From a virus, in IMG/VR virus record IMGVR_UViG_3300025141_012665, positions 1 to 64,000 of that record: 64,000 bases of DNA; one strand, written 5' to 3'. The translations under genes and the position numbers were made by a program. Of the stretch, positions 6,639-29,347 are shown one piece after another; position 1 is the stretch's first letter; each line of letters opens with the position of its first letter. The notes beneath the pieces were generated by a model. The model saw nothing but the letters and a program-made list of their open reading frames with translations. It made no database searches and had not been told where the DNA came from.

Positions 6639-6667
6639 ACTATAACACGATAAAGTTTAGATGTCAA
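6639..6667 (-). promoter_or_regulatory. sigma70-type promoter TTGACA-17-TATAGT with extended -10; likely leaderless transcript
   Basis: -35 at 6667-6662, -10 at 6644-6639. Only 5 nt separate the -10 from the ATG at 6633, and there is no SD. Confidence 0.8.
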
Positions 6668-7874
6668 GTTTTAACTTAAATGTCAAGTCCCTATTTTCAG
6701 TTTTCTTGACTGGTTTGGCGAGAGAGGCTATGCCGATGAGCTTTTTCTTTTCATCATAGATGCCGATTTTTGTAATGTAAGTGGTCTTAACGAGGCTTCC
6801 AGATGGATCTGCGTAGGATGCGCTGTGAATGTTTTTTATTACATTTTCAGGCTCTACATACGCATAAGAGCCGGTCCGTGCCCTGATTGACTGGCTAGCT
6901 GATACATAAGTTAAATTATTTGAATAATTTAATTCGCCCTTGTTTGCATGAGCAAGCATTGTGACAGTTGGAATTTTATGAGTGCCGGCGAAATCTAGCG
7001 AAAAAGAGGCGGAAGGGTTGATGTCGGCATAACCCGTATATGGTACCATATACGGGTAACCTAGACCAAAATTAAGCCAGCATGCGGGCTGAATGATGTA
7101 TTGACCATCAACATCTTTATCACAAAAGGAGGTCGGTAGAAGGGCCAACCTCGTTGAGCCCGTAAGGATAATGATACCCTCTTTGTAGAGGACAACGCCC
7201 TGTGTTCCGTTGGAGTCTCTGAGCGCTCCATTTCTTCTCGTGTCTTGTAGTTGGGCGGCGATGGTTCCTGTTATATAAAATTTTAGATCAACTGTTCCTT
7301 TTTTGATCTCCGAACCATAAAAGATGGATGGAATCTGAATTATGTTAACTCCGCCTGAATCGTCAACATTATAATGGTCTCCAAGTCTTGCTGCATAACT
7401 AAGAGAGTTTTTGAGGGCGCTGCCGGTGTGGTTAGTCGTTAAGAAATTGTGACTCGCCTGATATCTCTGCCTCGTTATACTTGATGATAGCTGATAGCTG
7501 CCCGTTATGATATCGCCGGCATTATAGTTGTGAATATAGTCCGCCCTCTTAATCCCCTTGAAGGCAATCTTTTGATTCCCTTTGGAGATATATGGGTAGA
7601 TTATTCCCGTATCAGGAACATTCCACGACGATGAGATAGAAGATGACGGGCCGACCACCAATGTCTTGTCGCTGGCCGCGGCACGATCTACATTATACTC
7701 AAACAGGCTAATATGCCCAACAGGGACATTGGTCGCGTTTGCAACAAACGCGCCTGGCTCAGTGGCCTTATTGTTGTAAAATATCCTAGAATCGTTTATA
7801 AAGAAAGAACTGCTGGGGTGTGCTTTTATCTGATTGTAAAAGAGATCACCGTCTCCAAACTTATAGAGAGGCAT
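6657..7874 (-). CDS. Virion (baseplate/tail-associated) protein, paralogue of 7886..9061
   Basis: Shares a C-terminal motif with the next gene (FNYSxNxTY ... TYITxIGxY...L..A.L..P..K....LT....LD). S/T/G-rich. GGAGG RBS. Confidence 0.65.
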   Translation of the reverse strand: MPLYKFGDGDLFYNQIKAHPSSSFFINDSRIFYNNKATEPGAFVANATNVPVGHISLFEYNVDRAAASDKTLVVGPSSSISSSWNVPDTGIIYPYISKGNQKIAFKGIKRADYIHNYNAGDIITGSYQLSSSITRQRYQASHNFLTTNHTGSALKNSLSYAARLGDHYNVDDSGGVNIIQIPSIFYGSEIKKGTVDLKFYITGTIAAQLQDTRRNGALRDSNGTQGVVLYKEGIIILTGSTRLALLPTSFCDKDVDGQYIIQPACWLNFGLGYPYMVPYTGYADINPSASFSLDFAGTHKIPTVTMLAHANKGELNYSNNLTYVSASQSIRARTGSYAYVEPENVIKNIHSASYADPSGSLVKTTYITKIGIYDEKKKLIGIASLAKPVKKTENRDLTFKLKLDI

Positions 7875-7885
7875 TCACACACCTC

Positions 7886-27782: not shown

Positions 27783-27784
27783 CT

Positions 27785-29347
27785 TTAACTCTGCCTCGAT
27801 TCGACCCTAAACTTAAATGTTTCTGGTTGTTCGACCCAAGATCCGACAGAGTTGTTATAATAAGCAAATTTTATTCCGTACATATAACCAGGCTCTAGCA
27901 TGTTCATGCCTAAGTCAAAGTAACTTCCAGATACATCAAAAGACATTTGAGTATGTCGGAGGCTTCCCGTCCCATATGGAATAATTTTCAAATCATCTGC
28001 GACTCTGTGAATTTCATACGAACCACTCTCAACTATATTGGTTTCTGCTTGCGCGACTGCCTTAGTATAAATAGTTGGGCTCCAATCTTTTTGGCGAGTG
28101 TAAACTCTGAAGCGCGCTGTTTCGTCATCGCGGTATACGGTTTTCAAATTTGTAATACTGGAAACATATTCTGTTGATGGCGCCATTGATGAGACGCTGA
28201 TACTTTTTGGCTTTATCGAGCCAGTATGGTAACGAGTTGCGGCCGTTGTCGAGTCAGAAACTGTATCGGCAGATTTAAACCATACATCATAGAGCGTACT
28301 AAGAGGAGTCGATGCAGCGGTGAGAGCAAGGCTGGCCGTATAGATGCCCGTTGAAACATAGCCTCCCGTAACAACTGTATTCGCCGCTGTACGGACGCTA
28401 GATCCATCAGAAACCAAAATAAGTGCTGATCCGCTTGGCGCGGAATCGCCGGCATTACCAGAAAAGAAGCTTACACAGATATTGCCCGTACCGACAGCGG
28501 GAATATTTCTCAATTGTCCTCGAAAATAATTATACAGATAAAGCGTGTTCATGTTATCCTCTGCCGTAGCAAGAGAACTACTATAATAGAAATTTCCTCT
28601 ATCGTCTTTTTTCGAAGAATCCCATCGAGCCTCAATACATGGTCGCTTAAAGAAAAACTCGGTACCTCTCCCAAAGAACTTCTTAGTGTAATAGGATCGT
28701 TTAGCTGACTCATAAGTGTTTGATATAAATACGCCCACACCCTCGTCATTTTTAGATCCTAAATTTACGGCTGCTTTTGAATTAGCAGACGAGCTTACCC
28801 ACTGCTCAACAAGGGTAGTGATATCAAGTTCAATATCCTCAACGCCGACAGGGAAAGATGCGGTGAAGGAAGAAGTTGTATCAACATAATAATCTCCACC
28901 CTCTTTTGTCCAGGTTGTAATGCCAGCAGACGATGTTAGACGATTAATCCAGTTTGAGCTTCCCTTATCTTTGTATGCGTCCATATCTAGTCCAGAGCCT
29001 TCTTTCCAGTGACCATTAACAGCAGAAACATCCATTGTAAAATCCTTTGGAAGGGTTTGGCTATGAGGAGTATTAAACATTCTCAGATAGAAACTAACGC
29101 TACCGCTGACTGGAATTTTCCCGTCTGTTCTATCTTGTTTTATAGAGTTCGCTGATGCAGTAACATCAAACTTAAGCAATGCGCGGGATTTTTCAGCAGA
29201 AGATGAGTTTGCCTGTCCATATATTGAAAACACTTCCAGAATATCAGAGGCGCCCATATTAGAACCCGTCGCCCTTGTGGATAAATTCTCCTCAAAGGCG
29301 TTAGTTATTGTATTATCAGATTTTGCAAAATATCTTTTAATGGCCAT
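27785..29347 (-). CDS. Virion protein with DNRLRE-like beta-sandwich N-terminal domain
   Basis: SDNTI..N.G..ILEV...SRALLKFD and W.EG.G..W..W..EGGD pattern. S/T-rich, baseplate context. Confidence 0.55.
   Translation of the reverse strand: MAIKRYFAKSDNTITNAFEENLSTRATGSNMGASDILEVFSIYGQANSSSAEKSRALLKFDVTASANSIKQDRTDGKIPVSGSVSFYLRMFNTPHSQTLPKDFTMDVSAVNGHWKEGSGLDMDAYKDKGSSNWINRLTSSAGITTWTKEGGDYYVDTTSSFTASFPVGVEDIELDITTLVEQWVSSSANSKAAVNLGSKNDEGVGVFISNTYESAKRSYYTKKFFGRGTEFFFKRPCIEARWDSSKKDDRGNFYYSSSLATAEDNMNTLYLYNYFRGQLRNIPAVGTGNICVSFFSGNAGDSAPSGSALILVSDGSSVRTAANTVVTGGYVSTGIYTASLALTAASTPLSTLYDVWFKSADTVSDSTTAATRYHTGSIKPKSISVSSMAPSTEYVSSITNLKTVYRDDETARFRVYTRQKDWSPTIYTKAVAQAETNIVESGSYEIHRVADDLKIIPYGTGSLRHTQMSFDVSGSYFDLGMNMLEPGYMYGIKFAYYNNSVGSWVEQPETFKFRVESRQS

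Follow-up and report, generated by a model that had tools for sequence, protein, structure and literature searches.

A serine-containing tripeptide in the outer tail proteins of a T4-like phage lineage as a candidate sequon for phage-encoded glycosylation

The window analyzed here is the first 64 kb (64,000 nucleotides) of a 74.6-kb viral contig from IMG/VR, record IMGVR_UViG_3300025141_012665, and every gene in it lies on the minus strand. It carries a distant T4-like baseplate module with gp25-like and gp6-like proteins, 3' of which proteins of 520, 3429, 346, 1205, 910, 303, 391, and 405 amino acids (aa) are encoded. Four of these proteins are rich in the tripeptide [S/T]-[G/A/S]-S, and a large locus of sugar genes follows on the same contig. 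We ask here what this tripeptide is and how it relates to the sugar genes. The module contains the gp25-like baseplate wedge protein (31190..31567; PF04965, E 2.9e-13) and the gp6-like wedge protein (29347..31143; PHROG baseplate wedge, E 2.6e-24), which is not motif-rich and serves as the anchor for comparisons. Directly downstream of gp6 lies the motif-rich 520-aa protein (27785..29347), followed by the giant tail/baseplate protein of 3429 aa (17493..27782), also motif-rich. Four structural-module proteins of 346, 1205, 910, and 303 aa (9078..17493) have no motif excess and are internal negative controls. Next come a moderately motif-rich 391-aa protein (7886..9061) and a motif-rich 405-aa protein (6657..7874), whose C-terminus is paralogous to the 391-aa protein. 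Neither the four motif-rich proteins nor the four controls gave any match in Pfam and PHROG profile searches. Judged by gp6, the nearest isolated phages (about 30% identity in each case) are Flavobacterium phage immuto and Microcystis phage Mel-JY01, along with an uncultured 484-kb phage.

The tripeptide was recounted in every open reading frame (ORF) of the window, and the expected number was taken from 1000 shuffles within each protein. The 405-aa protein contains 12 sites where 1.7 are expected (z 8.1), the 391-aa protein 8 against 2.8 (z 3.3, p 0.003), the 520-aa protein 15 against 4.6 (z 5.3), and the 3429-aa protein 49 against 17.6 (z 7.7). The excess is thus three to seven times chance. 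All remaining proteins of the window are flat, including the gp6-like protein (1 site, 1.5 expected), a 2429-aa protein (3 sites), the Mre11-Rad50 protein (1 site), and the 303-, 910-, 1205-, and 346-aa controls (2, 3, 3, and 2 sites against 1.7, 3.3, 3.8, and 0.5). These values reproduce exactly the hand counts of an earlier sequence-only reading of this DNA (12, 8, 15, and 45-50, with low numbers in the gp6-like, 2429-aa, and Mre11-Rad50 proteins). When all tripeptides were scanned without prior choice, TGS ranked first (z 8.3), and TAS, SGS, and SSS were also high. The sites are scattered singly, as the same reading had described, with median gaps of 20-39 residues and no run of [STGA] longer than nine. 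It is exceedingly improbable that the excess is a chance by-product of a composition rich in serine, threonine, and glycine or of low-complexity tracts. The enriched proteins are somewhat serine-rich (10-14%), but with this composition kept in the shuffles, z still reaches 8 in single proteins and 18-29 in pooled data, and the sites are dispersed. Moreover, equally serine-rich proteins are flat, namely three of the four neighboring controls (9-11% serine) and the giant protein of a relative described below (G053, 9.7% serine, 11 sites against 13.0 expected). The enrichment proposed in the sequence-only reading therefore survives the control for composition.

Two trivial sources of the motif were tried and rejected. 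A cause at the DNA level is not indicated, since the sites use all six serine codons as often as the background does, and no 9-mer is repeated. Nor can the motif be traced to common domains or to repeats within a protein. BLAST found similarity between the C-termini of the 405-aa and 391-aa proteins, no further similarity among the four proteins, and no internal repeats in the 3429-aa giant. The signal is at the protein level and is sharply defined.

The residue rules of the motif were derived from 427 sites in a pool of 27 enriched proteins from five genomes. S-G-S is enriched 4.8-fold (z 19) and T-G-S 4.9-fold (z 18), followed by [ST]-A-S at 3-3.8-fold and [ST]-S-S at about 2-fold, and all other residues at the second position are neutral or depleted (at most about 1-fold). 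Position 1 takes only serine (3.9-fold) or threonine (4.5-fold), with aspartate at 1.4-fold and asparagine at 0.6-fold. Position 3 takes only serine (4.2-fold, z 29), threonine there reaching 1.3-1.6-fold. At position -1, Ile, Val, Leu, Met, Phe, and His are favored, and Asp and Lys are nearly absent. At position +1, Tyr, Phe, Leu, Val, and Ala are favored, and Lys and Pro are scarce. Because the flanks beyond -2 and +1 are at background, the motif is a short tag rather than the signature of a domain. The motif was also tried as an Asx/ST-turn and rejected as such, as aspartate and asparagine are not favored at position 1. Over-representation beyond composition combined with position-specific residue rules, as found here, is what sequon-directed protein O-glycosylation would in general lead one to expect.

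The motif is widespread among relatives of the phage. All 80 homologs of the 520-aa protein in IMG/VR (42-74% identity) are enriched, with z values of 3.1-7.8. In a survey anchored on gp6 (30-64% identity), 51 of 55 relatives have an excess downstream of gp6 (z ≥4.4), and the controls taken upstream are flat. Two relatives were scanned as whole genomes (G005 and G003), and the enriched proteins are the same orthologous set and one further protein of about 1100-1180 aa, with nothing else. The giant orthologs contain 40 sites against 11.7 expected in G005 and 35 against 12.6 in G003, the 391-aa orthologs reach z 3.9-4.0 in both genomes, and the 405-aa orthologs are enriched in both as well as in G023. 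The fifth motif-rich protein (G005:93371-96913, 22 sites against 7.5; G003:3650-6979, 18 against 7.4) lies outside the gene set of the window.

Among isolated phages, Flavobacterium phage immuto has an excess in gp111 (z 4.8), gp101 (60 sites against 20), and gp056 (17 against 3.0), and its capsid and portal proteins are flat; head and tube proteins of G005 and G003 are likewise without excess. The immuto proteins gp105 and gp102 also count among its motif-rich proteins. Microcystis phage Mel-JY01 has six enriched proteins (z 4.1-6.3). Rhodothermus phage RM378 shows a modest excess in only two adjacent proteins (64825-67547; z 4.6 and 4.2). In T4, none of 25 structural proteins has an excess, and in cyanophage S-RIM44, which shares the gp25-gp6-giant layout, the 3328-aa giant after gp6 has 12 sites against 12.4 expected. 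These two phages rule out the motif as a generic property of tail fibers. Since both are without it, the excess is lineage-specific, and only a fixed set of outer tail proteins shows it. Within the lineage, the sites move. At about 40% identity, 35-50% of aligned sites share their position, against 10-14% of identical tripeptides overall. More than half of the sites are lineage-specific, yet each ortholog has a strong excess. The motif is thus held by selection across a deep phage lineage in which the sites turn over and the density stays.

The sugar locus extends from 43.9 kb to about 68.2 kb of the contig according to Pfam annotation (43883..64000 within the window). This confirms an island of more than 20 kb that includes a Maf-like transferase, as had been read from the sequence. 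The locus is a variable cassette for sugar synthesis and decoration. It encodes a sulfotransferase (44857..45480; PF03567, 26.8 bits against a cut-off of 22), a NeuB-family nonulosonate synthase (49054..49917; PF03102, E 1.1e-65), a NeuA-like CMP-sugar cytidylyltransferase (CTP_transf_3; 52529..53302; PF02348, E 2.1e-17), and a putative nonulosonate transferase of the MptE/Maf type (53335..54255). It also includes three 4,6-dehydratase-like enzymes, DegT aminotransferases, a B12 radical S-adenosylmethionine (SAM) enzyme, methyltransferases, a thiamine diphosphate (ThDP) enzyme, and an aldolase. A 196-aa ORF (58403-58993) matches only the middle of the DegT aminotransferase profile and may be a truncated or split aminotransferase. 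The genes for a B12-binding radical-SAM protein (47460-49052), an LdpA-like di-[4Fe-4S] protein (61129-62268), an HpcH-type aldolase (62265-63089), and an acetolactate-synthase-like ThDP enzyme (63093 to contig position 64835) form a set that suggests an unusual branched or C-methylated sugar.

The glycosyltransferases (GTs) at the far end of the locus lie beyond the window. Around and after 68.2 kb, the contig encodes a GT2 enzyme, two CgeB-like GTs, a 289-aa unknown protein, a GT-B-like partner (contig 68230-69327), a core GT4 enzyme (contig 69497-70834, L113:6498-7835; PF00534, 52.7 bits against a cut-off of 26.4), and a PD-(D/E)XK nuclease. The last three follow the cassette. The Glycos_transf_1 domain above its cut-off and the similarity to solved GT4 enzymes (17 matches in the PDB, the best being 3oy2, B736L, E 2.4e-8) place the core enzyme in the GT4 family. 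It is found in 38 of 50 records and in all five of those at least 90% complete, and among isolated phages it occurs only within the same deep lineage. A single ORF joins the partner to a Maf/MptE-like domain in G003 (L105:485-2152) and to a GT2 domain in G053 (L231:16062-17990). These fusions can be read from the sequences as Rosetta-stone-type links between the core pair and variable transferases. RM378 (L120:9165-11893) has the same pair of a GT gene and a gene at the partner position, without an adjoining cassette.

The position of the cassette is syntenic among relatives, but its content differs. That of G005 contains GT2, GT11 and GT10 fucosyltransferases, four sulfotransferases, and GDP-fucose genes, without Maf or NeuB, and the product predicted from this gene content is a fucosylated, sulfated glycan. 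The G003 cassette is a pseudaminic/legionaminic-type set, that of immuto has amino-sugar genes, and that of Mel-JY01 has two GT-A-type transferases and a methyltransferase.

What the sugar genes act on has to be considered. One explanation is that the cassette and the GTs modify phage DNA, the host envelope, or small molecules, that the motif has nothing to do with them, and that their joint loss described below is a coincidence. DNA glucosylation and serotype conversion are the best-known roles of phage GTs (PMC12619734), and the GT4 gene adjoins the PD-(D/E)XK nuclease gene in all lineages. Against this, no flippase, polymerase, lipid-carrier or polyprenyl-phosphate transferase, oligosaccharyltransferase, or export gene is present among the Pfam annotations of the cassettes, and no coding-strand protein of the cassette has a transmembrane-like segment, all island proteins being soluble. 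Modification of the envelope is less likely because no membrane or export component is present. Glycosylation of DNA is also less likely, because a search limited to the PF00303 route found no ThyA/dCMP-hydroxymethylase gene in five near-complete relatives. Since the coincident loss would also have happened twice, we regard this explanation as very unlikely.

The sequence-only reading had linked the motif to Maf, and this link is not supported. The Maf-like protein scores above the curated cut-off of PF01973 (37.9 bits against 34.6; 39 bits in a six-frame search) and its gene lies within 5 kb of NeuB and CTP_transf_3 on the same strand. The protein is 306 aa long, its PF01973 domain spans residues 51-221, and it has no sequence match in the PDB at E ≤1. 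A search with PF01973 gave no match in G004, G005, and G008 (each estimated as 100% complete) or in G006 (92%). The 520-like proteins of the Maf-less G004, G005, and G006 are nevertheless enriched, as is the whole orthologous set in G005. Because the motif is retained in complete relatives that are devoid of Maf or NeuB (G005, and by the Maf search also G004 and G006), Maf is ruled out as its reader. At most, it would add a terminal nonulosonate in this phage only.

The expectation that motif density follows the presence of the sugar island was borne out in two independent lineages without sugar-synthesis genes, in which the excess has been lost from the 520-like and giant proteins. The survey loci without excess are L138 (G011), L169 (G012), and L166. 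In G011 (145 kb, 80% complete) and G012, the nuclease, GT4, and partner genes are followed by baseplate-side genes about 450 bp after the partner. Neither genome has a match to any of 52 cassette proteins from three genomes, and neither has an epimerase-family (PF01370) or GT2 (PF00535) gene anywhere. Their 520-like proteins contain 0 (G011) and 1 (G012) sites, and their giants 24 against 14.5 expected and 20 against 14.6, respectively. The fifth motif-rich protein noted above has no detectable homolog in the island-less G011. In a quick IQ-TREE phylogeny of gp6, G011 and G012 are sister to the motif-positive, island-bearing L136 and L162 (support 96) and lie deep inside the motif-positive clade. 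Because of this nesting, the loss of the motif in G011 and G012 is secondary.

The second lineage, L166, belongs to another gp6 subclade and is represented by its relative G053 (79 kb), which has GT4, the partner-GT2 fusion, and a sulfotransferase, but no sugar-synthesis genes. It is flat in the 520-like protein (2 sites against 1.6 expected) and in the giant (11 against 13.0 and 4 against 3.8). Across motif-positive relatives, a dependence on the size of the island was looked for and not found, the ratios being 2.5-4.2 over GT4-gp6 distances of 18-39 kb. The effect of the island looks like a threshold.

The 391/405-like orthologs of window positions 6657-9061 form a separate observation. They retain a residual motif excess in G011, G012, and G053, for example I-S-G-S-Y and L-T-G-S-W in G011, whose 405-like protein has 7 sites against 2.1 expected. 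These residual sites may be what the retained GT4/partner pair acts on, or they may have a structural role.

The way in which sites were lost is informative. Sites conserved in 70-97% of the family carry charged or bulky residues in motif-poor genomes: YSSSL has become AKRKT, HTGSI HEGEI, SSSST PKPKL, YSASF YYVDV, ESASY EKIYY, and GTGSD GIGTD. No substitute motif was found in the motif-poor lineages. Because charged residues replace near-invariant sites in intact orthologs, these comparisons indicate that charge is tolerated at the positions, that folding does not depend on the motif serines, and, by implication, that the sites are probably exposed.

The sequence-only reading had predicted that the sites lie in surface loops. 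In an AlphaFold2 (AF2) model of the 520-aa protein (predicted local distance difference test score 78.5, predicted template modeling score 0.79), the chain is predicted to form a series of beta-sandwich domains, for which Foldseek returned unspecific multi-domain matches to Ig/FN3/CBM-like folds. Six of its 15 modeled sites are in loops, five at loop-to-strand entries, one at a strand end, and three inside strands. The 12 modeled sites in loops or at strand ends and entries, like the replacement of lost sites by Lys, Arg, Glu, or Asp, would give the prediction indirect support.

These data also bear on the explanation that the motif is not modified at all, but has a structural or functional role at the protein surface, for example as a turn, a strand-entry signature, or a hydroxyl patch that contacts host polysaccharide, and that it changed together with the cassette through a host switch. 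The motif-rich proteins are all positional orthologs in one deep lineage, so that phylogeny and function are not fully separable. Several sites are near-invariant, the flanks are hydrophobic, many sites are at loop-to-strand entries, and I-T/S-G-S-Y and L-T-G-S-W of the 405-like family persist in the island-less G011. An unmodified structural element is nonetheless difficult to reconcile with sites that are invariant in an alignment of 37 sequences and become KRK, EGE, KPK, or YVD in intact orthologs, with the turnover of more than half of the sites at constant density, and with flanks at background that bear no domain signature. Unlike Asx/ST-turns, the motif does not favor Asp or Asn at position 1. 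In addition, it is found in proteins unrelated by sequence, and the positional analogs in T4 and S-RIM44 are without it. We consider this explanation unlikely.

A further explanation retains the modification but changes its chemistry. The motif would be a sequon at which serine is, for example, phosphorylated, acylated, or converted by radical-SAM-type chemistry, and its link to the cassette would be indirect. The sharp positional specificity speaks for recognition by an enzyme and leaves the chemistry unspecified, GT4 and the partner are intact where the motif is lost and so need not be its readers, and the cassette has tailoring enzymes other than GTs (B12 radical-SAM enzyme, methyltransferases, sulfotransferase). 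It is quite unlikely in our view, as co-variation with the motif was seen for no kinase, acyltransferase, or further enzyme that modifies proteins, the genes lost in motif-poor lineages are those for sugar-nucleotide synthesis and transfer, and the same motif occurs with quite different tailoring enzymes (G005 vs. G000 vs. G003).

We therefore favor, with moderate confidence, the reading of the tripeptide as an O-glycosylation sequon for a phage-encoded cytoplasmic system. Because of the tripeptide excess, and because relatives without the island swapped the serines for charged residues, the motif is probably the site at which the phage's own sugars are added to the virion. The sequence-only reading had proposed surface O-glycosylation by the sugar genes of the phage. 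A sequon linked to sugar genes stands after the composition control, the co-variation, and the charged replacements, while the form specific to Maf does not. We infer from the sequences that the virion may be densely glycosylated.

Several points weigh against this reading. The case for a glycan is entirely comparative, and the co-variation amounts to two evolutionary events and is confounded with other changes in those lineages, such as the host. In the AF2 model of the 520-aa protein, three of its 15 sites fall inside strands. The core GT4 and its partner persist, apparently intact, in motif-poor lineages. Were they the readers, something else would have to account for their retention, for example the residual sites in 391/405-like proteins. 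G053 is flat despite its partner-GT2 fusion and sulfotransferase. Conversely, G023 (a 46-kb fragment) keeps the motif with one weak GT2-like gene after the partner, and LR756508, which has a GT4 homolog, shows weak motif excess. No single transferase family is common to the cassettes of motif-positive genomes.

Candidates for a sole determinant were rejected on similar grounds. The presence of GT4 is not sufficient, GT4 being present and intact in motif-poor genomes, and a convergent E-to-K change in the GT4 of these genomes was apparent only, as it affects different peripheral columns. A universal cassette transferase as reader was not found; GT2 is missing in G003 and present as a fusion in the motif-poor G053.

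In the mechanism that we propose for the sequon, the pentamer hydrophobic-[S/T]-[G/A/(S)]-S-hydrophobic would be the recognition site for cytoplasmic O-glycosylation, and the system would coat distal baseplate and fiber proteins before or during tail assembly. The modification would be a glycan. The conserved GT4 and the adjacent GT-B-like partner may prime, or dock on, the acceptor, and the swappable cassette may supply and add the outer sugars. Here, these would be a nonulosonic acid attached by the Maf-like enzyme, together with deoxy sugars, amino sugars, and groups of methyl and sulfate. Alternatively, a transferase encoded in the cassette may read the motif. A hydrophilic, variable glycan coat where the virion meets the host could, speculatively, serve protection, solubility, or adsorption.

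A broader proposal, which we hold to be evenly poised, is that this abundant, deep lineage of aquatic T4-like phages, with cultured members on Flavobacterium and Microcystis, practices modular self-glycosylation, with a fixed pentapeptide sequon repeated dozens of times in the outer tail proteins, a GT4 with an adaptor, and a swapped cassette giving each phage its own glycan "serotype" where the virion contacts the host. The core GT4 and adaptor would be fused to or teamed with changeable transferases, and the hypervariable cassette (nonulosonate, fucose and sulfate, or amino sugars) would be exchanged like an O-antigen locus.

Other features of the contig are recorded here. Upstream of gp25, the 2429-aa protein (31580-38869) matches no known family and shows no motif excess. 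In relatives, the counterparts are 1716 to 2262 aa long and barely alignable. The protein is possibly a tape-measure or hub protein. A single 1063-aa ORF (469-3660) joins an Mre11/SbcD-type phosphoesterase (residues 13-235) to a Rad50/SbcC-type SMC ATPase (381-1054), and the fused nuclease-ATPase is kept in relatives at 54% identity. CheckV rates the 74.6-kb contig as 23% complete, which implies a genome of about 320 kb. This estimate may be too low, because syntenic relatives rated complete are only 184-203 kb, one of them with terminal repeats.

If the proposed glycosylation is correct, a large and widespread aquatic phage group covers the parts with which it recognizes receptors in variable glycans, attached at a simple sequon predictable from sequence alone. 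Tail-fiber sequences and structures of environmental phages would then be read differently, and "auxiliary" sugar genes in marine viromes would represent virion decoration rather than host metabolism or envelope change. Phage-host adsorption and the diversity of phage serotypes would also be understood differently. For glyco-engineers, the motif would be a short tag read by soluble cytoplasmic enzymes. The proposal is directly testable, as the cultured phages immuto and Mel-JY01 share the signature.

Among known systems, GtfA/GtfB has a similar pair of enzymes. In this system, a cytoplasmic GT4 and an adjacent GT-B-like partner O-GlcNAcylate serines of serine-rich repeat adhesins in S-small-S contexts. 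The conserved GT4 and GT-B-like partner resemble this pair, and some relatives have the partner as a fusion with other transferases. The acceptors of GtfA/GtfB are long low-complexity repeats, whereas the sites here are single and dispersed in proteins predicted to fold as beta-sandwiches, with [STGA] runs of at most nine. GtfA was not among the PDB sequence matches of the phage GT4 at E ≤0.01. Maf (motility accessory factor) enzymes transfer nonulosonic acids to flagellin, a polymer subunit that is O-glycosylated at Ser/Thr in the cytoplasm and exposed at the surface later, and no simple sequon is known for them. The likeness here is a PF01973 protein near NeuB and a CMP-sugar synthetase. However, the phage protein has only 306 aa and no PDB sequence match, flagellin is absent, and the motif persists without Maf or NeuB.

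The general O-glycosylation of Bacteroidota uses the sequon D-(S/T)-(A/I/L/V/M/T), in which Asp before the acceptor is required, and it is periplasmic and host-encoded. As in the present case, a short sequon serves many proteins, and the hosts of the cultured relative immuto are Bacteroidota. In contrast to that sequon, Asp at -1 is nearly absent here, and the motif also occurs in a cyanobacterial phage. Chloroviruses likewise encode a soluble glycosylation machinery that is independent of host export. The phage GT4 is related to B736L (3oy2), which we take to be a chlorovirus enzyme, though this similarity is generic for GT4. In chloroviruses, whose hosts are eukaryotes, the major capsid protein carries N-linked glycans at atypical sites.

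Our literature searches found no description of such a sequon. To our knowledge, glycosylation of phage particles by phage enzymes has been shown so far only in a few mycobacteriophages, whose head and tail-tube proteins carry the glycans at their C-termini. Virion glycosylation of the mycobacteriophages Che8, Corndog, and Myrna was reported by Freeman et al. 2023, as summarized in PMC12619734, and going by that summary it is the closest precedent. Phage GTs are proposed there to modify the phage's own structural proteins in the host cytoplasm, resulting in a glycan coat (PMC12619734). According to the same summary, that case is experimentally shown, whereas the present one is proposed from sequences. 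The mycobacteriophage glycans are described as lying at the C-termini of capsid and tail-tube subunits (PMC12619734), whereas here the capsid is flat and the sites are internal and dispersed. The phages described here further differ from the mycobacteriophages in having up to about 50 candidate sites per protein, confined to the distal baseplate and fibers, together with a swappable multi-gene cassette.

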